A model generated the notes under the pieces. It did no database searches, was not told the origin of the DNA, and was given only the letters and a program-made list of their open reading frames with translations. Shown here piece after piece: positions 47,647 through 64,000 of a DNA stretch of 64,000 nt. Origin of the DNA: Escherichia coli (lineage in GTDB: Bacteria > Pseudomonadota > Gammaproteobacteria > Enterobacterales > Enterobacteriaceae); NCBI RefSeq assembly GCF_048403405.1, contig NZ_CP183129.1, one strand, 5' to 3'. The position numbers and the translations under genes are program-made. Position 1 is the stretch's first letter, and each line of letters opens with the position of its first letter.

Positions 47647-47832
47647 AAAAATCCCCATAAAAAACAACAGAGAGATACAGGTTTCCGACGGACAACGCTG
47701 CGGTGCTTTACTTTGATGGGGTCATTATAGTGAGCAGAATTAGTGCTGATTAGGGGGCGATTAATGCTAAGATTAATACCATATTGTTATAAATTAATGT
47801 GGAGATTGCCGGCATGAAGGGGGGATGTTTCA

Positions 47833-48717
47833 ATGGCGAAAAGGGAGAACTACAACGAGCTGTACCTGTTTATGCAGGTGGTGCGAGAAGGCAGCTTTAC
47901 CGCAGCGGCTCAGCGGCTGGGTCTTGCTCAGTCAGGAGTCAGCCGTTCTGTTCGCGAGCTTGAAGAAAGGCTGGGTGTCCAGCTGCTAGTGCGCACCACG
48001 CGTAAACTGTCGCTGACACAAGCAGGCGAGCAGCTCTACCAGAAGACGGCATCTGGATTTGAAATGTTAGATCTTGGGCTTGCCACACTGGCGCACTATC
48101 GAGAGACGCCCTCCGGCACGGTGCGTATCAATGCCAGCCAGCACGCGATTGATAAATGCCTGCTGCCAAAGCTGGCGGTATTTAAACAGCGATATCCTGA
48201 TATCCGGCTTGAACTGATAAATGAGAGCCGGTTCGTCGATATCATCGAGGAAAGATTCGATGCAGGTGTCCGCCTGGGGCCTGAAGTCGGCCAGGGTATG
48301 GTCGCGGTACGCATCACGCCCGATATGGAGATGGCAATTGTGGGGACTCCGGAACATTTTCGTCGCTATGGTTTTCCGCAAACCCCGGCGGATTTAAAGG
48401 CGCATCCCTGTATCGCCTATCAGTTTGCCGACGGCAGCGTATACCAGTGGGAACTCAATCAGGATGATAAAAAAATCACTCATCGCCCTGAAGGGCAATG
48501 GGCCTTATCCGACAGCTATATGGAAGCAGAAGCCGCCCGGCTGGGCCTCGGATTGGCCTATGTTCCTGTTGAACTGGTCGCGGATGATTTAGAACACGGT
48601 AAGCTTATCAGGGTGTTGCAGCGTTACAGCCTGCGAATGGAGGGATTGTTTCTCTATTACCCTCATCGCAACGTCTCCCCCGCCCTGCGGATGGTCATTG
48701 ATACATTGAAAATCTGA
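47833..48717 (+). CDS. LysR-family transcriptional regulator (possibly YagP-like)
   Basis: 294-aa ORF; LysR HTH (FTAAAQRLGLAQSGVSRSVRELEERL); divergent from hydrolase-MFS genes. Confidence 0.75.
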   Translation: MAKRENYNELYLFMQVVREGSFTAAAQRLGLAQSGVSRSVRELEERLGVQLLVRTTRKLSLTQAGEQLYQKTASGFEMLDLGLATLAHYRETPSGTVRINASQHAIDKCLLPKLAVFKQRYPDIRLELINESRFVDIIEERFDAGVRLGPEVGQGMVAVRITPDMEMAIVGTPEHFRRYGFPQTPADLKAHPCIAYQFADGSVYQWELNQDDKKITHRPEGQWALSDSYMEAEAARLGLGLAYVPVELVADDLEHGKLIRVLQRYSLRMEGLFLYYPHRNVSPALRMVIDTLKI

Positions 48718-48789
48718 ACGTTAACAACGACCGACTCTTTACTGTGCAATATTGTGTCAGGTAGTCCCTCTGCGTTCAATTCCAGGGTT

Positions 48790-49210
48790 TGTACTGACCC
48801 CAAAAAGTTGGACAGTTAAACACGAGGCATATAGGTCTGATTCCGATATTCAATTGGAGTCAGACCTTTTAATTTCAGGCTAATTCTTCTGCTGTTGTAG
48901 TATTCAATATATTCCGTAACAGCATCCTTCAGTTCGCTTATATTACTGAACTCATCAAGATAAAAACACTCCGACTTTAAGGTTCCAAAGAAACACTCCA
49001 CCACAGCATTATCCAGACAATTGCCTTTTCTGGACATGCTTTGTTTAATACCATGTTCTTTAAGGATATTTTGATATCTTCTCATACGATACTGCCATCC
49101 CTGGTCAGAGTGCAGAACAGGATGCTCGTGAGGATTAAGCTTTTTGAATGCCTGATCGAGCATATTCTCAACCATGTTCATCACTGGTCTTTCCGAAAGG
49201 CTGTAAGAAA
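48790..49210 (-). mobile_element. IS3-family (IS150-like) fragment: terminal repeat plus C-terminal part of orfB
   Basis: End TGTACTGACCCC at 48790; minus-strand ORF 48816..49283 encodes the DDE integrase C-terminus (HSDQGWQY...[11 protein letters not shown]); truncated at IS26 boundary 49210/49211. Confidence 0.65.
49203..49210. repeat. 8-bp IS26 target-site duplication copy (GTAAGAAA)
   Basis: Abuts IS26 copy 1; its reverse complement TTTCTTAC is at 50736-50743 abutting copy 2. Confidence 0.8.
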
Positions 49211-50030
49211 GGCACTGTTGCAAATAGTCGGTGGTGATAAACTTATCATCCCCTTTTGCTGATGGAGCTGCACATGAACCCATTCAAAGGCCGGCATTTT
49301 CAGCGTGACATCATTCTGTGGGCCGTACGCTGGTACTGCAAATACGGCATCAGTTACCGTGAGCTGCAGGAGATGCTGGCTGAACGCGGAGTGAATGTCG
49401 ATCACTCCACGATTTACCGCTGGGTTCAGCGTTATGCGCCTGAAATGGAAAAACGGCTGCGCTGGTACTGGCGTAACCCTTCCGATCTTTGCCCGTGGCA
49501 CATGGATGAAACCTACGTGAAGGTCAATGGCCGCTGGGCGTATCTGTACCGGGCCGTCGACAGCCGGGGCCGCACTGTCGATTTTTATCTCTCCTCCCGT
49601 CGTAACAGCAAAGCTGCATACCGGTTTCTGGGTAAAATCCTCAACAACGTGAAGAAGTGGCAGATCCCACGATTCATCAACACGGATAAAGCGCCCGCCT
49701 ATGGTCGCGCGCTTGCTCTGCTCAAACGCGAAGGCCGGTGCCCGTCTGACGTTGAACACCGACAGATTAAGTACCGGAACAACGTGATTGAATGCGATCA
49801 TGGCAAACTGAAACGGATAATCAACGCCACGCTGGGATTTAAATCCATGAAGACGGCTTACGCCACCATCAAAGGTATTGAGGTGATGCGTGCACTACGC
49901 AAAGGCCAGGCCTCAGCATTTTATTATGGTGATCCCCTGGGCGAAATGCGCCTGGTAAGCAGAGTTTTTGAAATGTAAGGCCTTTGAATAAGACAAAAGG
50001 CTGCCTCATCGCTAACTTTGCAACAGTGCC
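49211..50030 (+). mobile_element. IS26 (IS6 family), copy 1, 820 bp
   Basis: 14-bp terminal inverted repeats GGCACTGTTGCAAA at 49211 and 50017-50030; encodes Tnp26. Confidence 0.92.
49274..49978 (+). CDS. tnpA: IS26 transposase Tnp26
   Basis: 234-aa product [35 protein letters not shown]...; track ORF starts at upstream TTG 49256. Confidence 0.92.
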   Translation: MNPFKGRHFQRDIILWAVRWYCKYGISYRELQEMLAERGVNVDHSTIYRWVQRYAPEMEKRLRWYWRNPSDLCPWHMDETYVKVNGRWAYLYRAVDSRGRTVDFYLSSRRNSKAAYRFLGKILNNVKKWQIPRFINTDKAPAYGRALALLKREGRCPSDVEHRQIKYRNNVIECDHGKLKRIINATLGFKSMKTAYATIKGIEVMRALRKGQASAFYYGDPLGEMRLVSRVFEM

Positions 50031-50743
50031 CTTGCTGGTAGTGGTTCTGTAGCCAGGTGGCTGAAGGTCTATGAAGAGCGCGGAGAAGCTGGTTTACGCG
50101 CGCTCAAGATTGGCACCAAAAGAAACATTGCAATATCAGTTGATCCAGAAAAAGCGGCATCAGCATTGGAGCTGTCAAAAGACCGACGCATTGAGGATCT
50201 TGAAAGGCAAGTTCGATTTCTTGAAACGCGGCTTATGTATCTAAAAAAGCTGAAAGCCTTAGCTCATCCCACGAAAAAGTAAAAGTACTCAACGAGCTAA
50301 GGCAGTTTTATCCTCTTGATGAGCTTCTCAGGGCTGCGGAGATACCGCGCAGTACGTTTTATTACCATCTAAAGGCTCTCAGCAAGCCTGACAAGTATGC
50401 GGACGTTAAAAAGCGTATTGGTGAGATTTATCACGAGAATAGAGGCCGATACGGATACCGTAGGGTAACGCTGTCTCTTCATCGAGAAGGGAAACAGATT
50501 AACCATAAAGCTGTTCAGCGCCTGATGGGAACCCTCTCACTTAAAGCAGCGATTAAGGTCAAGCGATACCGCTCTTACAGAGGAGAGGTAGGGCAAACCG
50601 CCCCTAATGTTCTCCAAAGAGATTTCAAGGCTACGCGGCCAAACGAGAAGTGGGTTACCGATGTTACTGAATTTGCAGTCAATGGGCGCAAGCTGTATTT
50701 GTCTCCAGTAATAGATCTCTTCAACAACGAAGTTATTTCTTAC
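50031..50743 (+). mobile_element. IS3-family (IS150-like) fragment: C-terminal part of orfA and N-terminal part of orfB, inverted relative to 48790..49210
   Basis: orfA end with stop at 50279-50281; orfB N-terminus to 50743 (...KWVTDVTEF...[17 protein letters not shown]); frame continues into the minus-strand fragment across the shared 8-bp repeat. Confidence 0.65.
50736..50743. repeat. 8-bp IS26 target-site duplication copy (TTTCTTAC)
   Basis: Reverse complement of 49203-49210, abutting IS26 copy 2. Confidence 0.8.
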
Positions 50744-51563
50744 GGCACTGTTGCAAAGTTAGCGATGAGGCAGCCTTTTGTCTTATTCAAAGGCCTTACA
50801 TTTCAAAAACTCTGCTTACCAGGCGCATTTCGCCCAGGGGATCACCATAATAAAATGCTGAGGCCTGGCCTTTGCGTAGTGCACGCATCACCTCAATACC
50901 TTTGATGGTGGCGTAAGCCGTCTTCATGGATTTAAATCCCAGCGTGGCGTTGATTATCCGTTTCAGTTTGCCATGATCGCATTCAATCACGTTGTTCCGG
51001 TACTTAATCTGTCGGTGTTCAACGTCAGACGGGCACCGGCCTTCGCGTTTGAGCAGAGCAAGCGCGCGACCATAGGCGGGCGCTTTATCCGTGTTGATGA
51101 ATCGTGGGATCTGCCACTTCTTCACGTTGTTGAGGATTTTACCCAGAAACCGGTATGCAGCTTTGCTGTTACGACGGGAGGAGAGATAAAAATCGACAGT
51201 GCGGCCCCGGCTGTCGACGGCCCGGTACAGATACGCCCAGCGGCCATTGACCTTCACGTAGGTTTCATCCATGTGCCACGGGCAAAGATCGGAAGGGTTA
51301 CGCCAGTACCAGCGCAGCCGTTTTTCCATTTCAGGCGCATAACGCTGAACCCAGCGGTAAATCGTGGAGTGATCGACATTCACTCCGCGTTCAGCCAGCA
51401 TCTCCTGCAGCTCACGGTAACTGATGCCGTATTTGCAGTACCAGCGTACGGCCCACAGAATGATGTCACGCTGAAAATGCCGGCCTTTGAATGGGTTCAT
51501 GTGCAGCTCCATCAGCAAAAGGGGATGATAAGTTTATCACCACCGACTATTTGCAACAGTGCC
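50744..51563 (-). mobile_element. IS26, copy 2, inverted relative to copy 1
   Basis: 820 bp with the same 14-bp terminal repeats; encoded transposase identical at protein level to copy 1. Confidence 0.92.
50796..51500 (-). CDS. tnpA: IS26 transposase Tnp26
   Basis: Same 240-aa track translation as 49256..49978. Confidence 0.92.
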
Positions 51564-51803
51564 GATGATTTCAGATTTCATGACTTGAGACACACCTGGG
51601 CAAGTTGGCTGGTTCAAGCCGGTGTCCCGTTGTCAGTGTTACAGGAAATGGGAGGCTGGGAGTCTATCGAAATGGTTCGTCGATATGCTCACCTCGCACC
51701 TAATCACCTTACCGAACACGCACGGCAAATAGACTCGATCCTGAACCCATCGGTCCCAAATTTGTCCCAGTCAAAAAATAAGGAAGGTACTAATGATGTG
51801 TAA
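51564..51803 (+). pseudogene. 3' remnant of a tyrosine-recombinase (phage-type integrase) gene truncated by IS26
   Basis: About 80 C-terminal codons containing HDLRHTWAS and RRYAHL catalytic-region motifs; begins at the IS26 boundary, ends 15 bp from tRNA-Thr. Confidence 0.65.
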
Positions 51804-51817
51804 CTTATTGATTTAAA

Positions 51818-51893
51818 TGGTGCCGATAATAGGAGTCGAACCTACGACCTTCGCATTACGAATGCGCTGCTCTACCAACTGAGCTATATCGGC
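51818..51893 (-). tRNA. thrW: tRNA-Thr (anticodon CGU)
   Basis: Reverse complement reads GCCGATATAGCTCAGTTGGTAGAGCAGCGCATTCGTAATGCGAAGGTCGTAGGTTCGACTCCTATTATCGGCACCA; adjacent to proA as for thrW. Confidence 0.9.
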
Positions 51894-52007
51894 CCTGAAA
51901 GGACATGTTCACGAACGTGAATCACGGTGGACAAGGTTAAAACTAACCGGGCGATGCGTCAATGGCCTTGTGAATCAAATGGCTACTTTTGCATCACCCG
52001 GTTTTAT

Positions 52008-53261
52008 TTACGCACGAATGGTGTAATCACCAATGCCGATCCACTTGTAAGTGGTCAGTGCTTCCAGCCCCATTGGGCCACGCGCGTGGAGTTTTTGTGT
52101 GCTTACCGCCACTTCCGCACCCAGACCAAACTGGCCGCCGTCGGTAAAACGCGTAGAGGCGTTAACGTAAACAGCGGACGAATCCACTTCGTTAACAAAA
52201 CGCTGGGCGTTGCGCATATCGCGGGTCAGGATCGCATCGGAGTGTTGTGTGCCGTGTTCACGAATATGGGCGATGGCATCGTCAAGATCGCTGACGATTT
52301 TGACGTTCAAATCTAATGACAGAAACTCATCGTCATACTCTTCGGCTTTAACAGCAACCACCTTCGCAGGGCCTGCCTGCAACTGCGCCAGTGCAGCTGC
52401 ATCTGCGTGTAATGTCACGCCGCTTTCCGCCATTTGTTTGCTTAATGCGGGCAGGAAGCTATCGGCGATGTTTTTATTCACCAGCAACGTTTCAACCGTA
52501 TTACATGTGCTCGGTCGCTGAGTTTTCGCGTTGACGATCACTTTTAATGCTTCAGCGATCTCTACACTTTCATCAACGTAAATATGGCATACGCCTATAC
52601 CACCTGTGATCACCGGGATCGTTGACTGTTCGCGGCACAGTTTATGCAGGCCAGCGCCACCACGCGGGATCAGCATGTCGATGTATTTATCCATACGCAG
52701 CATTTCACTGACCAGCGCACGGTCAGGATTATCAATCGCCTGCACGGCACCCGCCGGTAAGCCGCAGGATTTCAGGGCGTCCTGAATCACCGCCACCGTT
52801 GCAGCGTTAGTGCGGCAGGTTTCTTTACCGCCACGCAGGACCACCGCGTTACCCGTTTTCAGGCACAGCGAAGCGACATCAACCGTCACGTTCGGCCGCG
52901 CTTCATAAATCACGCCAATCACGCCCAGCGGTACGCGACGACGCTCAAGACGCAGGCCGCTGTCCAGTACGCCGCCATCGATTACCTGCCCCACCGGATC
53001 GGCAAGGTTACACACCTGGCGCACATCGTCAGCAATGCCTTTCAGCCGTGCGGGCGTCAGTGCCAGACGGTCAAGCATCGCTTCGCTAAGGCCATTGGCA
53101 CGCGCGTCAGCAACATCCTGGGCGTTAGCGTTGAGGATGATTTCGCTTTGTGCTTCCAGTTCATCGGCGATTTTTTCCAGCACACGATTTTTTTCGCGGC
53201 TGGAGAGTTGCGCTAATTTATACGAGGCTTGCTTTGCGGCAATGCCCATTTGTTCCAGCAT
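52008..53261 (-). CDS. proA: gamma-glutamyl phosphate reductase ProA
   Basis: 417-aa [31 protein letters not shown]... Confidence 0.95.
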
Positions 53262-53272
53262 CGGCCAGCTCC

Positions 53273-54376
53273 TTAACGGGTAATCATGTCATCACGGTGA
53301 ACGGCAACCGGGCCATATTCATATCCCAGTATTGCATCAATTTCTTGCGAGTGGTGTCCGGCAATACGGCGTAATGCATCGCTGTTGTAACGACTGACGC
53401 CGTGGGCGATATCGCGACCTTCGAGGTTGCAAATGCGGATGACTTCACCACGCGAGAAATTGCCAGTCACGCTTTTAATACCTTTCGGCAACAGGGAGCT
53501 GCCGCGTTCAAGAATGGCGGCGGTTGCCCCTTCATCTACCGTGATTTCACCCGCCGGCGGCGCACCGAAAATCCAGCGTTTACGGTTTTCAAGCGGAGTC
53601 GCCTGGGCATGGAACAGCGTACCCACGGAAATGCCTTCCATCACATCACCAATAACGCCCGGCTTGCTGCCCGCGGCAATAATGGTGTCGATACCCGCAC
53701 GGCAAGCCACGTCCGCGGCCTGCAATTTGGTACTCATGCCGCCAGTTCCGAGGCCTGAAACACTGTCACCGGCAATCGCGCGCAGTGCGTCATCAATGCC
53801 GTAAACATCTTTAATCAGTTCTGCCTGCGGATTGCTGCGCGGGTCAGCGGTGTACAAACCTTTTTGATCGGTCAGCAGCAACAGTTTATCGGCACCCGCC
53901 AGAATCGCCGCCAGCGCAGAAAGGTTATCGTTATCGCCGACCTTAATCTCTGCAGTAGCGACAGCATCGTTCTCATTGATTACCGGAACGATATTGTTAT
54001 CGAGCAACGCTCGCAGGGTGTCGCGGGCGTTCAGGAAGCGTTCACGGTCTTCCATATCAGCACGGGTCAGCAGCATTTGCCCGACGTGAATGCCATAAAT
54101 CGAAAACAGCTGTTCCCACAGTTGAATCAGTCGACTCTGCCCTACCGCCGCCAGCAGTTGTTTCGAGGCGATAGTCGCTGGCAGTTCCGGGTAACCCAGG
54201 TGCTCACGTCCGGCGGCGATCGCGCCCGACGTCACAATAACAATCCGATGCCCGGCGGCATGTAACTGCGCGCACTGGCGAACAAGTTCAACGATATGGG
54301 CACGGTTCAGACGGCGCGATCCGCCTGTTAGCACACTGGTGCCGAGTTTTACCACCAGCGTCTGGCTGTCACTCAT
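53273..54376 (-). CDS. proB: glutamate 5-kinase ProB
   Basis: ORF 53273..54463; ATG 54376 ([16 protein letters not shown]...) gives 367 aa. Confidence 0.95.
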
Positions 54377-54564
54377 GATTCTCTGCCATTCAATTTTAGG
54401 AAAAATGATATCAAACGAACGTTTTAGCAGGACTGTCGTCGGTTGCCAACCATCTGCGAGCAAAGCATGGTGTTTTGTTGCGCGGGATCAGCAAGCGTAG
54501 CGGCAGTTGTTTACGCTTTTATTACAGATTTAATAAATTACCACATTTTAAGAATATTATTAAT

Positions 54565-54590
54565 CTGTAATATATCTTTAACAATCTCAG
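54565..54590 (+). promoter_or_regulatory. Pho box (PhoB site) in the phoE promoter
   Basis: CTGTAATATATCTTTAACAATCTCAG about 75 bp upstream of the phoE start; resembles tandem CTGTCATA-type PhoB half-sites. Confidence 0.5.
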
Positions 54591-54663
54591 GTTAAAAACT
54601 TTCCTGTTTTCAACGGGACTCTCCCGCTGAATATTCGCGCGTTAATTAAAATCAGGAATGAAA

Positions 54664-55719
54664 ATGAAAAAGAGCACTCTGGCATTAGTGGTGATGGGCA
54701 TTGTGGCATCTGCATCCGTACAGGCCGCAGAAATATATAACAAAGACGGTAATAAACTGGATGTCTATGGCAAAGTTAAAGCCATGCATTATATGAGTGA
54801 TAACGACAGTAAAGATGGCGACCAGAGTTATATCCGTTTTGGTTTTAAAGGCGAAACACAAATTAACGATCAACTGACGGGTTATGGTCGTTGGGAAGCA
54901 GAGTTTGCCGGTAATAAAGCGGAGAGTGATACTGCACAGCAAAAAACACGTCTCGCTTTTGCCGGGTTGAAATATAAAGATTTGGGTTCTTTCGATTATG
55001 GTCGTAACCTGGGCGCGCTGTATGACGTGGAAGCCTGGACCGATATGTTCCCGGAATTTGGTGGCGACTCCTCCGCACAGACCGACAACTTTATGACCAA
55101 ACGTGCCAGCGGTCTGGCTACTTACCGTAACACTGACTTTTTCGGCGTTATCGATGGTCTGAACTTAACCCTGCAATATCAAGGGAAAAACGAAAACCGC
55201 GACGTTAAAAAGCAAAACGGCGATGGCTTCGGTACGTCATTGACATATGACTTTGGTGGCAGCGATTTCGCCATCAGTGGGGCCTATACCAACTCCGATC
55301 GCACTAACGAGCAGAACCTGCAAAGCCGTGGCACAGGCAAGCGTGCAGAAGCATGGGCAACAGGTCTGAAATACGATGCCAATAATATTTATCTGGCAAC
55401 TTTCTATTCTGAAACACGCAAAATGACGCCAATCTCTGGCGGCTTTGCCAATAAGACACAGAACTTTGAAGCGGTCGCCCAATACCAGTTTGACTTTGGT
55501 CTGCGTCCATCGCTGGGTTATGTCTTATCGAAAGGGAAAGATATTGAAGGCATCGGTGATGAAGATCTGGTCAATTATATCGACGTCGGTGCTACATATT
55601 ATTTCAACAAAAATATGTCAGCGTTTGTTGATTATAAAATCAACCAACTGGATAGCGATAATAAGCTGAACATCAATAATGATGATATTGTCGCGGTTGG
55701 CATGACCTATCAGTTTTAA
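54664..55719 (+). CDS. phoE: phosphate-starvation outer-membrane porin PhoE
   Basis: ORF 54658..55719; ATG 54664 with AGGA RBS; signal peptide [21 protein letters not shown]; C-terminal GMTYQF. Confidence 0.95.
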
Positions 55720-55757
55720 TGGATATTGCCGGATGTGATGCATCCGGCACATTTCAC

Positions 55758-56216
<459 letters not shown>

Positions 56217-57461
56217 TTAACACAATCGTTTTTCAATCCAGTCTGTGATTTCCTGAAGGCCTTTGTCAAAATTCCGATACACCGGGTTAAATGGGATCTC
56301 TAATAATTTACCGTCAGCAGATGATGAGGTGATTAAGCGTGAGTCCTCTTCCGGGCTGAACGGATCGTTCTTCCAGTAGCCTGATAACATTGGCGTTGGG
56401 CAACGACGTCCCAGCAATCCTTGCACTTTTAATGAATAGCGATTCAACTCCACGCGTAACGCTTCGTCGGAAGCATCATGCATACCCAAACGACTCGCCA
56501 GAACGTCAAGATACATTTCCGGCACCTGTTGCTGGCACTTAAAATCACTCAACAGGGTATGAACTACCGGACCAAGACAGGCAACCGCTTTCAGACGCGG
56601 CGATTCAAGGTATGCCAGACGTACGGCAACGTTAGCGCCGAAACGGAAACCAAAGGCCGCGACGCGAGTGTGATCTACCCACGGTACGTTAGGCAGCGCC
56701 TTTAAGACGTGCTGATGCAACAGGCTGGAGTCCTGGGTGAGCTTCCATTTTGAAGAAAAGCCCACCGACGGCATATCAATAGTCAGCATCGCAATGCCGC
56801 GCGGCGCAAAATAACGTTCATACAGGCTGTAATAGTCCGTCTGCATCGCATCCAGACCACCACACATTAATACTGTCGGGAACGGGCCATCACCTTTCGG
56901 CATATGCAAAAAGCCGGTGATGGGCGCACCGCCGGGTACGGTAAACTCCATCTGCCGCATCGTGCCCGGCAGACGCTGAGCGGCCTCTTCATAGGCGCGG
57001 TTTGACAAAGCCTGCGCTTGCTCGGCCAGGTCATCTCCTTTCAGATGAGGATAGGCGGCAATGTTGTACAACGTAGCCGCATGCAGCCAGTGACGACCAC
57101 TGAGTTGCGGATCTTCTTCCGCACAGGCTTTTTGTTGCCACACCATCGCCTGGGTGGCCCACTCATAAATCCAGTTGCCACCACGGTAGCCAATCACCGT
57201 ATCGTATAAATCATCGTCGGTACGTTCGGCATCGCTCATCACAATACGCGCCTGGACGTCGAGGATTTCACGTGGGTCAATGCCGCGCCAGATCCACATC
57301 AGACGGTTAATCATGCGATACCAGTGAGGGATGGTTTTACCATCAAGGGCCGACTGCACAGGCGGTTGTGCGCCGTGATTAAAGCGGCGGACTAGCGTCG
57401 AGGTTTCAGGATGTTTAAAGCGGGGTTTGAACAGGGTTTCGCTCAGGTTTGCCTGTGTCAT
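56217..57461 (-). CDS. frsA: esterase FrsA (fermentation/respiration switch protein)
   Basis: 414-aa alpha/beta-hydrolase ORF between crl and gpt. Confidence 0.92.
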
Positions 57462-57552
57462 GGATGCAGCCTCCAGAATACTTACTGGAAACTATTGTAA
57501 CCCGCCTGAAGTTAAAAAGAACAACGCCCGGCAGTGCCAGGCGTTGAAAAGA

Positions 57553-58011
57553 TTAGCGACCGGAGATTGGCGGGACGAATACGACGCCCATATCCCACGG
57601 TTGTTCGATCCAGGTATCTTGCGGGATATCAACAACATAATCATCAACCAGCGGACGACCAGCCGGTTTTGCGAAGATGGTGACAAAGTGCGCTTTTGGA
57701 TACATTTCGCGGATTGCCACTGCAGTACCACCGGTATCCACCAGGTCATCAATAACAATGAAGCCTTCGCCATCGCCTTCTGCGCGTTTCAGCACTTTAA
57801 GCTCGCGCTGGTTGTCGTGATCGTAGCTGGAAATACAAACGGTATCGACATGACGAATACCCAGTTCACGCGCCAGTAACGCACTCGGTACCAGACCGCC
57901 ACGGCTTACGGCAATAATGCCTTTCCATTGTTCAGAAGGCATCAGTCGGCTTGCGAGTTTACGTGCATGGATCTGCAACATGTCCCAGGTGACGATGTAT
58001 TTTTCGCTCAT
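57553..58011 (-). CDS. gpt: xanthine-guanine phosphoribosyltransferase Gpt
   Basis: 152-aa [26 protein letters not shown]... with PRPP-binding [11 protein letters not shown]. Confidence 0.95.
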
Positions 58012-58271
58012 GTGAAGTGTCCCAGCCTGTTTATCTACGGCTTAAAAAGTGTTCGAGGGGAAAATAGGTTGCGCGAGATTATAGAGATCTGGCGCACTAA
58101 AAACCAGTATTTCACATGAGTCCGCGTCTTTTTACGCACTGCCTCTCCCTGACGCGGGATAAAGTGGTATTCTCAAACATATCTCGCAAGCCTGTCTTGT
58201 GTTGACAACATTTTCTGCTAACCCTGTGACCTGCAATACTGTTTTGCGGGTGATCGACAAGGAGACTTAAC

Positions 58272-59729
58272 GTGTCTGAACTGTCTCAATTATCTCCACA
58301 GCCGCTGTGGGATATTTTTGCCAAAATCTGTTCTATTCCTCACCCGTCCTATCATGAAGAGCAACTCGCTGAATACATTGTTGGTTGGGCAAAAGAGAAA
58401 GGTTTCCATGTCGAACGCGATCAGGTAGGTAATATCCTGATTCGTAAACCTGCTACCGCAGGTATGGAAAATCGTAAACCGGTCGTCTTGCAGGCCCACC
58501 TCGATATGGTGCCGCAGAAAAATAACGACACCGTGCATGACTTCACGAAAGATCCTATCCAGCCTTATATTGATGGCGAATGGGTTAAAGCGCGCGGCAC
58601 CACGCTGGGTGCGGATAACGGTATTGGTATGGCCTCTGCACTGGCGGTTCTGGCTGACGAAAACGTGGTTCACGGCCCGCTGGAAGTGCTGCTGACCATG
58701 ACCGAAGAAGCCGGTATGGATGGTGCTTTTGGCTTACAGAGCAACTGGTTGCAGGCTGATATTCTGATTAACACCGACTCCGAAGAAGAAGGTGAAATCT
58801 ACATGGGTTGCGCGGGGGGTATCGACTTTACCTCCAACCTGCATTTAGATCGTGAAGCGGTTCCAGCTGGCTTTGAAACCTTCAAGTTAACCTTAAAAGG
58901 CCTGAAAGGCGGTCACTCCGGCGGTGAAATCCACGTTGGCCTGGGTAATGCCAACAAACTGCTGGTGCGCTTCCTGGCGGGTCATGCAGAAGAACTGGAC
59001 CTGCGCCTTATCGATTTCAACGGCGGCACACTGCGTAACGCCATCCCGCGTGAAGCCTTTGCGACCATTGCTGTCGCAGCTGATAAAGTCGACGCACTGA
59101 AATCTCTGGTGAATACCTATCAGGAGATCCTGAAAAACGAGCTGGCAGAGAAAGAGAAAAATCTGGCATTGCTGCTGGACTCTGTTGCGAACGATAAAGC
59201 TGCCCTGATTGCGAATTCTCGCGATACCTTTATTCGTCTGCTGAACGCCACCCCGAACGGTGTGATCCGCAACTCCGACGTGGCAAAAGGTGTGGTCGAA
59301 ACCTCCCTGAACGTCGGTGTGGTGACCATGACTGACAATAACGTAGAAATTCACTGCCTGATCCGTTCTCTGATCGACAGCGGTAAAGACTACGTGGTAA
59401 GCATGCTGGATTCGCTGGGTAAACTGGCTGGCGCGAAAACCGAAGCGAAAGGCGCATATCCTGGCTGGCAGCCGGACGCTAATTCTCCGGTGATGCATCT
59501 GGTACGTGAAACTTATCAGCGTCTGTTCAACAAGACGCCGAACATCCAGATTATCCACGCGGGCCTGGAATGTGGTCTGTTCAAAAAACCGTATCCGGAA
59601 ATGGACATGGTTTCTATCGGGCCAACAATCACCGGTCCACACTCTCCGGATGAGCAAGTTCACATCGAAAGCGTAGGTCATTACTGGACACTGCTGACTG
59701 AACTGCTGAAAGAAATTCCGGCGAAGTAA
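58272..59729 (+). CDS. pepD: cytosol nonspecific dipeptidase PepD
   Basis: 485-aa ORF with GTG start; M20-family metallopeptidase. Confidence 0.95.
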   Translation: MSELSQLSPQPLWDIFAKICSIPHPSYHEEQLAEYIVGWAKEKGFHVERDQVGNILIRKPATAGMENRKPVVLQAHLDMVPQKNNDTVHDFTKDPIQPYIDGEWVKARGTTLGADNGIGMASALAVLADENVVHGPLEVLLTMTEEAGMDGAFGLQSNWLQADILINTDSEEEGEIYMGCAGGIDFTSNLHLDREAVPAGFETFKLTLKGLKGGHSGGEIHVGLGNANKLLVRFLAGHAEELDLRLIDFNGGTLRNAIPREAFATIAVAADKVDALKSLVNTYQEILKNELAEKEKNLALLLDSVANDKAALIANSRDTFIRLLNATPNGVIRNSDVAKGVVETSLNVGVVTMTDNNVEIHCLIRSLIDSGKDYVVSMLDSLGKLAGAKTEAKGAYPGWQPDANSPVMHLVRETYQRLFNKTPNIQIIHAGLECGLFKKPYPEMDMVSIGPTITGPHSPDEQVHIESVGHYWTLLTELLKEIPAK

Positions 59730-59739
59730 TTACAATAAT

Positions 59740-59761
59740 GTCCACGCCTGCGGGCGTGGAC
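59740..59761 (+). terminator. hairpin immediately after pepD stop
   Basis: GTCCACGCC-tgcg-GGCGTGGAC perfect 9-bp stem; weak downstream T-tract (TACTGTTTG). Confidence 0.35.
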
Positions 59762-59776
59762 TACTGTTTGAAGCCA

Positions 59777-60019
59777 ATGGCTATCTATATCGAAATAACA
59801 AAACATTATGAAACTCATGAAAAGGTCGCATATTTATATAGCTGCGACCATATTTCATGGGGAGAATTTCTGATCACCAAAGAAGGTTTTGCGCTGGAAT
59901 CCGTGAAAGAACTTAAGGGTGAAAAGCAGAAATTTTATATGTTCAGAGCCTGGGGCAAAGTCAGGAGAGCATACTTAACCACGGGAGAATTCCCCCAGGA
60001 AACATGTTACGCCGCTTAA
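59777..60019 (+). CDS. hypothetical 80-aa protein
   Basis: ORF 59738..60019; first ATG lies inside the pepD terminator hairpin, so ATG 59777 (MAIYIEITKHYE...) is used; no clear RBS. Confidence 0.25.
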   Translation: MAIYIEITKHYETHEKVAYLYSCDHISWGEFLITKEGFALESVKELKGEKQKFYMFRAWGKVRRAYLTTGEFPQETCYAA

Positions 60020-60035
60020 AGTCAGAGTTATTTTT

Positions 60036-60545
60036 TCATGCATTTACCATTTTGGCATTACGCCTGCGCCACATGGCAATGGCGGCAGCCACTAATGCCA
60101 GTTCCAGTAAAAACGACCAGTGTAATAAAAAATTGAGCCACCACGGATGATGTACCGCCGTAATATGAAAGAGTGCAAAGGGTTGGTTAACGAAAGGCAT
60201 CAACCACCAGATATCACCGACCAGCGTATCGAGTAATAAATGCACGATACCATTCAGGCAAAACACCACGCCCAACCACGCCGGAAGTTTATTCTTCGCA
60301 ATTGCGGCCCAGACTAATGTCGCCGCCAGCAGAGCAAACCATAATAATGGCCAATGAGACGGGTAAAGATGATGATGTCGTTGCCCGTTATCAACCAGAT
60401 AGCACCAAAAAAGATCAAAATCGGGCGCAACGGACCCAACTAAGCCAATAACCATCGCCCAGCGCGCATGACGAGCAATCAGTGGCAAGCGTTTCATTAA
60501 AGTACAAGTTATTAAATAACCAGCCGGAAGATGACCGATAAACAT
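60036..60545 (-). CDS. polytopic membrane protein, possibly DUF457/YdjM-like metal-dependent hydrolase
   Basis: ORF 60036..60599; ATG 60545 (MFIGHLPAGYL...) with AAGGA RBS; His-rich hydrophobic sequence; 7 bp downstream of prfH. Confidence 0.5.
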   Translation of the reverse strand: MFIGHLPAGYLITCTLMKRLPLIARHARWAMVIGLVGSVAPDFDLFWCYLVDNGQRHHHLYPSHWPLLWFALLAATLVWAAIAKNKLPAWLGVVFCLNGIVHLLLDTLVGDIWWLMPFVNQPFALFHITAVHHPWWLNFLLHWSFLLELALVAAAIAMWRRRNAKMVNA

Positions 60546-60606
60546 GACTATTCCTTTCGTTTTTCCCGCCGCTTTCACATAGAAAACGGCGGGAGACATT
60601 CCTCAA

Positions 60607-61221
60607 TTACACAGCGACAAAAGCCATCCCTGTAAACGTTCGTCGCGGGTTGCCACGTTCAATCTGGTGATGGAACATTCGCCGCTGCGATTTCAGCGCC
60701 GCGCTATTTTTCTGTTGCTGCTGCTCCAGCTTCCAGGCAATCAGCAATCGCGCCAGCCGTTTGTTAGCATGCTGGCTGCGCTCTGACTGAACCTTCACGC
60801 TAATCCCGGATGCCAAATGCGTGGCGCGTACCGCCGAGTCGGTTTTATTGACATGTTGACCGCCCGGCCCCGACGAACGCAGCGTCTCATACCGGATCGC
60901 ATCGGATTGCTCCTGCTCATCAGCGGTAAAACGCCCAATGCCCAGAAACCAGTTTTTGCGCCCATGATGAGGCCGATACGGACTCGGACAAATCCACTGA
61001 ATAGTGCCGCACCAACTTTCGCTTAATGCCCATGCATTATCGCCATCCAGAGAAACCAGCGCTGAACGCAGCGTGTCAGAGTAGCGGCCCGTTTCTGTTT
61101 CCAGCACCGTTACCGCGACGTCTTGTCGGGTAGCTTCTTTAATCAGCCTGTCCAGTGCCTTTTTCACTGCGAGACAACATTCTTCCGGCCCCTGCGCTGA
61201 GGAGAGTTGTAGCAAGATCAT
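60607..61221 (-). CDS. prfH: peptide chain release factor homolog PrfH (GGQ motif)
   Basis: ORF 60607..61305; start at ATG 61221 ([14 protein letters not shown]...) in ATGA overlap with rtcB stop; [16 protein letters not shown] motif. Confidence 0.8.
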
Positions 61222-62369
61222 CCTTTTTTCCCTCCACTGTTTTTGAGCGTTAGCACCGGACGCAGTCGCGCGACAGGAATAATTAAACCGGCTTGCACCA
61301 GACATTGCACCACACTTTCAGCCGATTTATAGGCTTGTGGCGCTTCTTCGAAGATGAGTTGTTTATCGCGACAAATCACCCGGCTGCCAAGTTCAGTACG
61401 CGAGAGTTGCGTCGCCGTGTAATTCGCTGCCAGACGCCCTTTACACTCGGTGCGCCCCCATTTACGCCCTGCCCCATGCGCCAGCGAGTGGAGCGTTTTT
61501 TCGTTCGCAACAGGTTTAACCAGCCAGGAGTAATCACCGCGTGAACCGGGAATAATCACCAGACCGTTGTCATCCGGCGTGGCACCTTTACGATGCAACC
61601 AGCCCTGTTGATCGCCGATTTGGCACGCGCTAACAAAGTTATGCGCCACATCCAGAACCGGACTTCCGGTGGCCTTAACTTGTTGCATTATGCGCAAAGC
61701 GATCATCTGGCGATTAATACGCGCAAACGCCAGCGCATCGTCATGTTCCGCAATATACCGTAGCGCGTCGTCACTGCCTTCAGGCAAACCATGATGCGAA
61801 AACGAGGCAATATGCCGCTGTAAAATAGACTGCCCCAACCCCCTCGAGCCGCTATGAACCAGCAGTTGCAGATGCTGCGCATCCAGACCTGCCAGTGCAA
61901 ACAGTTCAGCGTCGATGATTTCATCAACTTGTTGCAGTTCTGCAAAGTGGTTTCCGCCACCGATAGAGCCAAGCGAGCTGCGCCACGAATGCTGTGCAAA
62001 TGCTGACGGCAGGTTTTCCTCCAGCCAGCTTTCTTCAGCAACGTCATCCAAAGCTGATAATCGCTTTTCAAACTTATCGGCGTTGTATTTACGAGCGAGA
62101 ATATCTGTTTGCCATAGCGCCATGCCGCAGCCGATATCATTGCCGACCAGTGCCGGGTAAAAACGGCCTGCGGAGAAGAACGCTGCGCCAATCGGGTAGC
62201 CGCGTCCGGGATGTAAATCTGGCATCCCTACTACGCGCTGCATGTTGGGTAAATTTGCCGTGGTGTGTAATTGTTGGATCGCTAAACTCTCGATCCACAG
62301 GTCATCAGATGCGATGGTAAATACCGCATCGGATAAGGGACGAATATATTTGCCCATGTACCATTCCAT
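61218..62369 (-). CDS. rtcB: RtcB-family RNA ligase paired with prfH (RtcB2-type)
   Basis: 383-aa ORF with RtcB motifs ([27 protein letters not shown]); start may be ATG 62369 or 62357. Confidence 0.8.
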
Positions 62370-62675
62370 TTATACTCGTCATACTTCAAGTTGCATGTAC
62401 TGCGGCTGCGTTCGTTCACCCCAGTCACTTACTTATGTAAGCTCCTGGGGATTCACTCGCTTGTCGCCTTCCTGCAACTCGAATTATTTAGAGTATATAA
62501 ATATTAAAAATCAGGAAATGGCAGACGAATCCAGGGCAAGAAAAAAAGAATTAATCCTGGAAAGGTCTGCAAAGAGTCATTGATAAAGGATTTGTCATGA
62601 TTTACCTCCTTGCAGTTTGTGGAATAAGAAAACGCGCACATACTAGGCGGGTGTTATTTTCATTGCAAGCTGGAT

Positions 62676-63128
62676 TTAATGTTGCGGTTTATATCGCATA
62701 GAAAAATTAGTAAACCACGCTCCCCTGCATTCAACGCGCTGCTGCTTAACTGTCTGAAAACCATAACGTTCAAAAAAGGGTTTTGCGGTTATGCTGGCAT
62801 CTACCGTTAGTTCGGATTCAGACTTAATCAATGGTTTTAACAAAGCGCTGGCAACCCCACAGCGGGTGTATTCAGGGTCAACAAATAACATATCGATATA
62901 GTGTTCAACGCGGGAAATAAAACCAACCGGTTGTGCATTAATGATCGCAACCCACACTTGTGATTTCGCGAGTTTCTCCTTCCAGCGAGATTCGTCAATC
63001 TGCGCCCAGGCGGCAATTTGTTGTGGTGAATAATGCTGACTGGCGGTCATCGTAACCGCTCTAAGGAAAATAGCGCATAGTTGCTGAAAATCGCCAGGCT
63101 GATAGTTTCTTATTTGTATGTTATTCAT
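62676..63128 (-). CDS. yafP: GNAT-family acetyltransferase YafP
   Basis: 150-aa ORF, last gene of the dinB-yafNOP operon. Confidence 0.85.
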   Translation of the reverse strand: MNNIQIRNYQPGDFQQLCAIFLRAVTMTASQHYSPQQIAAWAQIDESRWKEKLAKSQVWVAIINAQPVGFISRVEHYIDMLFVDPEYTRCGVASALLKPLIKSESELTVDASITAKPFFERYGFQTVKQQRVECRGAWFTNFSMRYKPQH

Positions 63129-63137
63129 AATATAAAT

Positions 63138-63536
63138 TCAAAAACGCATGCGAAACGCTTCTGCCATTTTTCCAATTTTATGCATTTGGTTGTTATCTCG
63201 AGCCAGTTTATGAGGTTCAGGCTTCAGAATGGCAATGAGCAACCATGCTTGCTCATCAAACGCACCCTGACAATATACCAAATGCGCTTCGTCATTCGTT
63301 CTGCTGAATTGGCACAACTGTGGCGGAAATGGATTATTCACATTTGCCAGATGAATATGAGCAACTCGCTCAAATTTGATTAATGGCCAGGTAAACGAGT
63401 CGTCGTAGAGTGCATCGCGACCAAATATATCTGGCAAAATACCGTCACGCTTATAGGAAATAAAATCCGCCGTTAACGCATCAAGTTCCTCTGCTGTAAG
63501 TTGCAGGCGAATAAGTTTTGTTTTGAATACCCGCAT
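63138..63536 (-). CDS. yafO: ribosome-dependent mRNA interferase toxin YafO
   Basis: 132-aa ORF MRVFKTKLIRLQLTAEELDALTADF...; 3 bp after yafN stop. Confidence 0.85.
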   Translation of the reverse strand: MRVFKTKLIRLQLTAEELDALTADFISYKRDGILPDIFGRDALYDDSFTWPLIKFERVAHIHLANVNNPFPPQLCQFSRTNDEAHLVYCQGAFDEQAWLLIAILKPEPHKLARDNNQMHKIGKMAEAFRMRF

Positions 63537-63538
63537 CC

Positions 63539-63832
63539 TTATTCCTTAAAGTCATTGAAATCATCATCCGTCATATCATTAAGATATTGTTCAGCGCGGC
63601 GTGTAATTTCCTCTAATCTTGCAGCACTCGGACGGAAGCGCGCCTTTATGGGCTTTTTCTCCTCTTGTTCAGCAAGCATGTCCATTAACGCTTCGAATGC
63701 GCTGGCACTTAAGAGATATCCTGCGGGGCGATTATTAGAAAGAACCGCAACCGGTTGATCAATAAAGTATTTAGCTGGGTTTTTACGTAACTCAGTGATA
63801 TTGACCGATTTTTCAGCGAGAATTCGATGCAT
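63539..63832 (-). CDS. yafN: antitoxin YafN
   Basis: 97-aa ORF MHRILAEKSVNITELRKNPAKYF... Confidence 0.85.
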   Translation of the reverse strand: MHRILAEKSVNITELRKNPAKYFIDQPVAVLSNNRPAGYLLSASAFEALMDMLAEQEEKKPIKARFRPSAARLEEITRRAEQYLNDMTDDDFNDFKE

Positions 63833-63883
63833 ACAGTGATCCCCTCATAATAATGCACACCAGAATAGACATAATAGTATACA

Positions 63884-64000
63884 TCATAATCCCAGCACCA
63901 GTTGTCTTTCCATTTGCGGGTCAAGCAACGTCACATGCAGCCCCACCAGTCGCACACCGCGCCCGCCGCGGCGTTCATCCCAGGTTTTACGCGCGGTGGC
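63884..64000 (-). CDS. dinB: DNA polymerase IV DinB, 3' end only (gene continues beyond the window)
   Basis: Minus-strand reading ends ...LLDPQMERQLVLGL then stop at 63884-63886. Confidence 0.7.
   Translation of the reverse strand, partial: ATARKTWDERRGGRGVRLVGLHVTLLDPQMERQLVLGL

Follow-up and report, generated by a model that had tools for sequence, protein, structure and literature searches.

Inversions caused by IS26 have been described by He et al. (2015, mBio 6:e00762-15; PMC4471558), who published both a signature and a parsimony argument for intramolecular replicative transposition of IS26 in trans. In their case, the element ISSwi1 is split into inverted halves in plasmids pKPN-068 and pKpQIL-234 as compared with pKpQIL-10. 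The same authors infer a 74-kb deletion of the adjacent-deletion kind (PMC4471558). The 64-kb stretch of Escherichia coli DNA analyzed here (the window) holds a structure that resembles these trans inversions in its inverted IS26 pair, in its inverted 8-bp repeats (one per copy) and in the exact rejoining of the separated halves. It differs from the published examples in being chromosomal rather than plasmid-borne, in the length of the inverted segment (713 bp, compared with 16-40 kb or more), in involving the variant IS26-v1, and in having neither resistance genes nor a single-copy ancestor sequence.

A DNA segment between two IS26 copies is also seen in IS26 pseudo-compound or composite transposons (e.g., of the Tn4352 type). 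Unlike a pseudo-compound transposon or translocatable unit, however, the copies found here are inverted rather than direct, and they enclose an IS150 fragment only, with no passenger gene. Additionally, the outer flanks of the whole unit differ (AAATCATC versus GTAAGAAA), and because no duplication flanks the unit, nothing indicates that it has moved as such. Altogether, we consider it likely that a series of IS26-v1 events at the chromosomal thrW locus left this structure as its footprint, and that the series ended with intramolecular replicative transposition in trans.

The inverted IS26 pair and its target site

The features of the locus are given below in window coordinates; L001, L006 and L009 are comparison loci.

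47833-48717, plus strand: gene (ORF) for a LysR-family regulator, annotated as LysR family regulator in L001, L006 and L009
48790-49202, minus strand: IS150 nt 1031-1443, mapping to L001 4990-5402; keeps its original orientation beside the LysR flank
49203-49210: target-site copy 1, GTAAGAAA, IS150 nt 1023-1030 read on the minus strand; abuts the IRL end of IS26 copy a
49211-50030, plus strand: IS26-v1 copy a, 820 bp, 14-bp terminal inverted repeats; tnp26 at 49274-49978 (234 aa, G184N)
50031-50735, plus strand: IS150 nt 318-1022, mapping to L001 6115-5411 in reverse; inverted relative to the remaining IS150
50736-50743: target-site copy 2, TTTCTTAC, IS150 nt 1023-1030; abuts the IRR end of IS26 copy b
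50744-51563, minus strand: IS26-v1 copy b, same sequence as copy a; tnp26 at 50796-51500 on the minus strand
51564-51803, plus strand: last 240 nt (79 codons and stop) of a prophage tyrosine integrase gene, the first 879 nt of which are missing
51818-51893, minus strand: tRNA-Thr (CGT), thrW, from ARAGORN and annotations; proA and proB are next

The four junctions of the IS26 pair are given by the k-mers CCGAAAGGCTGTAAGAAAGGCACTGTTGC, GCAACAGTGCCCTTGCTGGTAGTGG, GTTATTTCTTACGGCACTGTTGC and GCAACAGTGCCGATGATTTCAGATT.

The earlier note had described two 820-bp IS26 copies in opposite orientation around 713 bp, and this is what was found: the arms at 49211-50030 and 50744-51563 are 820 nt each, inverted, 100% complementary and spaced by 713 nt. 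A perfect 14-bp terminal inverted repeat, GGCACTGTTGCAAA, is located at all four IS26 ends. It occurs exactly four times in the window, where 0.02 occurrences would be expected by chance, so only two IS26 copies are present. The 234-aa Tnp26 ORF matched the NCBIfam model NF033587 (IS6 family transposase) with 278.2 bits (cut-off 125). The IS26 sequence was identical at 817 of 820 positions to copies annotated as IS26 in four loci, and at all 820 to the IS26-v1 copies in locus L002; plasmid copies encoding WP_001067858.1 were likewise identical to it. Its differences from standard IS26 number three (nt 459 G>A and nt 613-614 GG>AA), with G184N as the sole amino-acid change. As defined in PMC9412624, IS26-v1 carries three nucleotide changes, two of which give Tnp26 G184N. 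The variant goes back to Pong et al. 2019 (cited in PMC9019673 and PMC9412624), and raised activity has been reported for it (Pong et al. 2019, through PMC9019673). Judged by its sequence, the element is the variant IS26-v1 (Tnp26 G184N), and nothing was found that sets it apart.

The 8-bp inverted target repeats claimed for the pair were also recovered: GTAAGAAA abuts copy a on its outer side, and the reverse complement, TTTCTTAC, abuts copy b on its inner side. The match ends at exactly 8 bp and extends no further. Read from each insertion sequence, the flanks are GTAAGAAA-IRL...IRR-CTTGCTGG for copy a and AAATCATC-IRL...IRR-GTAAGAAA for copy b. The octamer copies are thus inverted, one per IS26, and placed at opposite IS ends (outside at the IRL of copy a, inside at the IRR of copy b), and one target copy per IS26 is the expectation for a split target duplication. 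The octamer occurs five times over both strands of the 64 kb, with about two occurrences expected, and so is not rare in itself. What counts is that both copies abut IS26 ends (about 1/65,536 per given flank pair) and that IS150 is restored exactly. The four flanks were also inspected by eye for outward hybrid promoters at the IS26 ends, and no convincing -10 box at the right spacing was seen.

Reconstruction of IS150 and possible routes to the inversion

The interrupted element had been called IS150-like in the earlier note; its assignment to the IS3 family stood, and the qualifier can be dropped, as the element is IS150 itself (99.9% identity). The outer part (48790-49202) contains the 3' part of orfB, with its stop at 48816-48818, and the right terminal inverted repeat of IS150, whose terminus TGTACTGACCCC lies at 48790. 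The inner part (50031-50735) contains the 3' part of orfA (stop at 50280-50282), the A AAA AAG frameshift site and the 5' part of orfB. The halves of orfB are therefore opposed in the way previously noted: the N-terminal part reads on the plus strand as far as 50743, and the C-terminal part, including the stop, occupies 48816-49210 of the minus strand. An apparent extension of IS150 homology by 8 bp past the terminus (from 48782) proved to be merely a similarity of the flank (CCAGGGT) to a hokE-linked IS150 site, and the 1,443-bp boundary of IS150 was upheld after this check.

Re-inversion of the middle segment, with removal of one IS26 and one 8-mer, yielded 1,126 bp that aligned to intact IS150 (nt 318-1443) as one ungapped piece over 1,126/1,126 bp, at 99.9% identity and with a single octamer. 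This reconstructed IS150 had matches in 3,346 records at a coverage of at least 80%. Translation of the rejoined halves agreed with the claim that orfB joins in frame over the octamer. The resulting OrfB matched the NCBIfam IS3-family transposase model in a single stretch (350.9 bits, cut-off 160), residues 2-276 aligning to profile positions 91-369 of 369. The contiguous IS3-family element that the earlier note had proposed to look for by re-inversion is thus obtained, together with a continuous OrfB. Neither of the two outcomes named there as refuting the reading was seen. Intact IS150 is 1,443 bp long; nt 318-1443 are kept here, with the frameshift site and the right terminus, and nt 1-317 (the left repeat and the start of orfA) are missing. 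Because of this deletion, the IS150 in the window is a truncated, split remnant. The 713-bp middle segment consists wholly of IS150 nt 318-1030 and therefore holds no cargo, in line with the statement that no resistance or cargo gene lies between the IS26 copies.

The geometry of the pair and the restoration of IS150 support the original reading of the structure as a product of intramolecular replicative IS26 transposition, and the 100% identity of the two copies is as expected if one arose as a replica of its partner. The final structure would nevertheless be identical if a second IS26-v1 had inserted into IS150 orfB through a cointegrate and its resolution, with a direct 8-bp duplication of GTAAGAAA, and RecA had then flipped the 713 bp. 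Since both routes leave the same structure, the one-step route is favored by parsimony and is not proven. Perfect 820-bp inverted repeats 713 bp apart are good RecA substrates, and a route of this kind was first proposed by other authors for pKpQIL-234 (reported in PMC4471558). However, it requires at least three steps (cointegrate, resolution and inversion) where one is sufficient, and IS26 cointegrates need recA-dependent resolution to leave a single copy (PMC7986276; PMC4471558). He et al. prefer the one-step route in the analogous case (PMC4471558), and the direct-repeat isomer, with GTAAGAAA on both sides, was found in no isolate among complete E. coli genomes. On balance, insertion followed by RecA inversion appears unlikely.

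How a short segment is oriented between identical inverted repeats depends on assembly quality, and a short-read graph can traverse it either way if the repeats exceed the read or insert length. The orientation of the 713 bp could accordingly have been an arbitrary choice of the assembler, or both isomers could coexist in a mixed population. Against this, the contiguous 64 kb running through two IS26 copies and the IS150 pieces suggests a long-read or finished assembly, and the remainder aligns collinearly to an independent complete genome with some eight substitutions, so that assembly quality appears high. In either orientation, moreover, IS26 activity at the octamer is needed. We regard an artefact or mixture as very improbable.

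The thrW locus and the proposed order of events

To the left of the structure, the LysR gene forms an intact chromosomal flank, with the end of IS150 73 bp downstream; to the right, thrW is the intact attachment site of a lost prophage and island. Alignment to the near-identical E. coli MS 69-1 showed the window to be collinear over 61 kb, differing by about 8 substitutions; positions 1-48788 show 3 mismatches and no gaps. A stretch of 46,628 bp is present in MS 69-1 and absent from the window, comprising the remnant of an AbiE-bearing island and the whole thrW prophage. What has been erased at thrW includes a 40-kb prophage and an AbiE-bearing defence island.

The integrase tail gave weak profile matches to the C-terminal part of tyrosine recombinases. 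The tail matches the prophage integrase of MS 69-1 (L006 48023-48262) at 100% identity but an older integrase pseudogene at only 76%, and this 3' end of the integrase is fused to IS26. The identity with the MS 69-1 integrase indicates that the prophage was lost via an IS26 breakpoint. Site-specific (Int/Xis) excision was ruled out, as the 3' end of the integrase stays in place, fused to IS26. This loss resembles IS26 adjacent deletion in cis in leaving a single IS26 without target duplication, between two flanks that near-identical relatives carry 46.6 kb apart; an equal result would come from recombination of two direct IS26 copies. Strain NN5 carries an independent IS26-bounded deletion that runs from a thrW integrase of the same type to tauC.

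The closest relatives do not have IS150 at the corresponding site, so one extra event must be assumed. In the proposed history, an ancestor resembling MS 69-1 would first have acquired IS150 in the DNA separating the LysR gene from the thrW island. IS26-v1, probably plasmid-derived, would then have landed in the interval from IS150 to thrW. Next, an adjacent deletion by IS26, through intramolecular transposition in cis or an equivalent process, would have taken out ~46.9 kb, comprising all between IS150 nt 317 and prophage integrase nt 879, and left a single IS26 (copy b) with no target duplication. In the last step, the ends of this resident IS26 would have attacked the octamer TTTCTTAC at IS150 nt 1023-1030 on the opposite strand, only 705 bp away. 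With replication, a second IS26 (copy a) would have arisen in inverted orientation, IS150 nt 318-1030 would have been turned around, and each IS would have ended up beside one copy of the octamer, the two copies being inverted.

Copy b would accordingly be the original resident and copy a the new copy arising from the inversion, and Tnp26 may be presumed to have catalyzed each step. At least three IS26 events would have taken place, the inversion being the final one in the order that we infer, a longer history than the earlier note had read from the locus; the deletion and the inversion in reverse order could give an identical end product. Before the inversion, the outer neighbors of copy b would have been IS150 nt 318 and integrase nt 880, which have no common 8-bp repeat. 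The flanks of IS26 reconstructed for this stage, CCAGCAAG and GATGATTT, do not match, as expected after an adjacent deletion (cf. PMC7986276).

The earlier note had also suggested a comparison with related genomes carrying a single IS26, which yielded no counterpart: complete E. coli genomes (5,426), PLSDB plasmids and metagenome contigs contained no such ancestor. A relative of this kind would corroborate the reading but is not strictly needed for it. Ten matches to the single-IS26 ancestor at a coverage of at least 80% were rejected as two-piece joins, in which intact IS150 and IS26 are parted by hok/mok DNA, and four further matches (H13-H15 and H17) that resembled common IS26-IS150-IS26 units were set aside as coincidental neighbors. 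No complete E. coli genome covers at least 80% of 47800-52100, the region of the present arrangement. An exact-match scan of metagenome contigs for the junction of IS26 with the integrase gave 0 matches. The junction-spanning chimeric ORFs (155 aa and 126 aa) were not on record, which different start-codon calls may explain. Because neither a single-IS26 intermediate nor another carrier of the junctions was found, the ancestor is purely a reconstruction.

The junction of IS26 with IS150 nt 318 was spanned by none of the best 5,000 plasmid records in PLSDB (72,556 plasmids) and was absent from complete E. coli genomes and their plasmids. Its absence from plasmids suggests that the junction was probably formed in place. 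This bears on the idea that a module of IS26, IS150 fragment and IS26 was built on a plasmid and moved here as a composite transposon or by recombination. Identical IS26-v1 and intact IS150 do co-occur on F-type resistance plasmids (e.g., NZ_CP147566.1); the plasmid matches, however, have an intact IS150 with other DNA between it and IS26. Additionally, IS150 meets the chromosomal LysR flank at its own terminus in the outer part (48790-49210), and from there its sequence runs on through the octamer into the inner part; the split therefore struck an IS150 already resident at this site. Import of a ready-made module is effectively refuted, and we give it almost no credence.

Significance of the inverted pair

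The locus is a clean textbook trace of an IS26 reaction that is already known. It offers a clean chromosomal teaching case of the trans pathway, with little import beyond this genome, and is unusual in how short the inverted segment is (713 bp), the target lying only 705 bp from the IS end. No function is evident for the pair, which is a scar: it leaves IS150 inactive and records where a prophage was lost. It is also a potential site of more rearrangement or of assembly ambiguity.

The pair could conceivably be live, with RecA or Tnp26 flipping the 713-bp segment, and serve as an active source of the hyperactive IS26-v1 in the chromosome, driving prophage and defence-island loss in a clinical E. 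coli lineage, a suggestion that we think unlikely. If true, it would make chromosomal IS26-v1 a driver of such losses.

For annotators, one short IS26-v1 series would account for the two pseudogene fragments of IS150, for the integrase tail and for the absence of the prophage. IS26-v1, usually discussed in the context of resistance plasmids, appears here to have removed a 46.6-kb thrW prophage and island, including an AbiE toxin-antitoxin pair.

The inverted IS26 pair and the restored IS150

The two IS26 copies in the window, here called copy a and copy b, adjoin remnants of IS150 and lie among the following features:

left of the IS26/IS150 block: LysR-family regulator gene, pao and ecp genes
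49211-50030, plus strand: IS26 copy a
50744-51563, minus strand: IS26 copy b
51564-51803, right of copy b: tyrosine integrase, last 240 nt
51818-51893, minus strand, right of copy b: tRNA-Thr(CGT), thrW
right of copy b: proA and proB

The earlier note's description of inverted 820-bp copies 713 bp apart was borne out, as the arms 49211-50030 and 50744-51563 are 820 nt long and 100% complementary around a 713-nt spacer. With four occurrences of the IS26 terminal repeat GGCACTGTTGCAAA (0.02 expected by chance), the window contains just two IS26 copies in its 64 kb. The inverted match reported at the outer end of copy a and the inner end of copy b is also present: GTAAGAAA lies directly left of copy a (49203-49210) and TTTCTTAC directly left of copy b (50736-50743), their complementarity at the IS26 flanks being exactly 8 bp. 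Written in IS-centric orientation, copy a reads GTAAGAAA-IRL...IRR-CTTGCTGG and copy b AAATCATC-IRL...IRR-GTAAGAAA, so that a single target duplication is split between both copies. The octamer is not rare per se: counting both strands, the window has five, where about two would be expected; the weight of evidence is the position of both octamers beside IS26 ends, together with the outcome of the reconstruction.

In this reconstruction the middle segment was re-inverted and one IS26 and one octamer were removed, joining 50031-50743 to the reverse complement of 48790-49202. As anticipated, a contiguous IS3-family element resulted: the 1,126 bp aligned with annotated intact IS150 as a single ungapped full-length piece at 99.9% identity, and 3,346 records matched it at a coverage of at least 80%. 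Mapped on an intact IS150 (locus L001), the inner segment corresponds to nt 318-1030, confirming that no cargo gene lies between the copies, and the outer segment to nt 1023-1443, with an overlap of exactly the octamer, nt 1023-1030. The two orfB halves do join in frame, since the translated reading frame was uninterrupted and the re-joined OrfB matched the NCBIfam IS3-family transposase model in one stretch (350.9 bits; cut-off 160). Thus, neither a discontinuous OrfB nor a missing 8-bp match, the two outcomes named beforehand as counting against an inversion, was encountered.

The encoded Tnp26 (234 aa) scored 278 bits on the IS6-family model (cut-off 125). Compared with standard IS26 (loci L003, L004 and L005), the window element has three differences, namely A at nt 459 and AA at nt 613-614 in both copies, with G184N as the sole amino-acid change. 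These changes fit the published definition of IS26-v1 (PMC9412624), to which both copies belong on the basis of their sequence. For this variant, raised transposase activity and cointegrate frequency have been reported (Pong et al. 2019, as cited in PMC9019673). Both copies are base-for-base identical to those encoding WP_001067858.1 on the F-type resistance plasmid NZ_CP147566.1 (L002). Arrival of a ready-made module by way of a plasmid is nevertheless effectively excluded, as the outer IS150 part meets the chromosomal flank at its own terminus, and the junction of IS26 with IS150 nt 318 was found in 0 of the best 5,000 plasmid records and in 0 E. coli records.

Formation of the arrangement

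The most economical history would have four steps. IS150 insertion and IS26-v1 entry would have been followed by a cis event (adjacent deletion) with loss of ~46.9 kb, and then by a trans event (intramolecular replicative transposition) into the octamer IS150 nt 1023-1030, a target just 705 bp away from the IS end; this last event would have created copy a and flipped IS150 nt 318-1030. The last two steps are interchangeable, as a 47-kb inversion and then a deletion from copy a would give the same product. Before inversion, the single IS26 would have had IS150 nt 318 and integrase nt 880 as neighbours, with no common octamer; flanks of this kind are expected from IS26 adjacent deletion (PMC7986276; PMC4471558).

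The earlier interpretation as an intramolecular replicative inversion is supported by the exact restoration of IS150 and by He et al. 2015 (PMC4471558), whose Fig. 1b shows the same geometry and who documented such structures, among them an IS broken into two mutually inverted halves. An identical final sequence would arise if a second IS26 had inserted with a direct duplication and RecA had then inverted the segment between the 820-bp copies. This route is improbable, however, as it takes additional steps, and IS26 moves by way of cointegrates whose resolution depends on recA (PMC4471558, PMC7986276); He et al. 2015 likewise judged the one-step route likelier than insertion and then inversion (PMC4471558). 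We therefore think it likely that a one-step trans event made the inverted pair. An assembly orientation error or a mixed population is possible in principle, given that the segment is short and bounded by identical inverted repeats, but the high quality of the rest of the window speaks against it.

At this site, E. coli MS 69-1 and its group have no IS150. FDAARGOS_1289, alone among 5,426 genomes, carries the element at this position, complete and flanked by a 3-bp duplication; IS150 was thus intact on arrival and truncated later. The base beside the IS150 terminus (48789) is T, and C in both the empty MS 69-1 site and the occupied FDAARGOS_1289 site; the flank CCAGGGT (48782-48789) resembles that of the common hokE-linked IS150 copies, with T at that position. 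This T may stem from a target preference of IS150, from a point mutation or from a base brought along from a donor site; the other IS150 end is deleted.

Loss of the thrW prophage and island

The window is collinear with MS 69-1, with three mismatches (6884, 14283 and 41968) and no gaps over 1-48788 and ~5 mismatches over 51564-64000; so few substitutions in the left 48.8 kb place both the divergence and the IS26 events in the recent past. The IS26 site is the only structural difference, besides one IS200C (~0.7 kb, downstream of pepD in MS 69-1) whose empty site in the window, at ~59732-59738, adjoins a GC-rich hairpin (GTCCACGCCTGCGGGCGTGGAC).

At the IS26 site, 46,628 bp of MS 69-1 (L006 1395-48022) are replaced by the 2,775-bp block of IS150 remnants and IS26 pair (48789-51563). 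The missing DNA comprises an AbiEi/AbiEii toxin-antitoxin pair with other old thrW island remnants, an AraC regulator, and a complete thrW prophage (~40 kb), of whose integrase the first 879 nt are gone. The boundaries are IS26, not att sites, and site-specific excision was ruled out as the cause of prophage loss, as the 3' end of the integrase gene is still present, joined to IS26. This tail is 100% identical to the MS 69-1 prophage integrase but only 76% to the older integrase pseudogene, while the equally close relatives 4621 and TUM14771 lack the prophage, so the window's ancestor was MS 69-1-like.

MS 69-1 has a 64-bp stretch (L006 8134-8197), located between the prophage and the remnant of the old island, that is 95% identical to window 51800-51863, immediately upstream of the 3' end of thrW. 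It is probably the internal att repeat of tandem insertions at thrW; of the two copies, the window keeps only the one proximal to thrW. In E. coli NN5 (L005, NZ_CP126348.1, 5787-8052), a standard IS26 just upstream of a same-type thrW integrase is joined to a truncated tauC, so that a further large deletion bounded by IS26 must have taken place independently at this locus in another lineage.

Distribution and significance

No complete E. coli genome showed the same arrangement, none of the 5,426 carried the reconstructed single-IS26 ancestor, the chimeric junction ORFs had no database record, and the IS26/integrase junction was not found in metagenome contigs. In the data covered by these searches, the arrangement occurs in this genome alone, in keeping with a recent event.

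The phenomenon and its elements are known and already described. The pair carries no cargo, and apart from inactivating IS150 and marking the prophage and island loss it has no evident function. What the analysis adds is modest: the copies are identified as IS26-v1, the setting is chromosomal, the inverted segment is very short, and a 46.6-kb deletion is linked to the pair.
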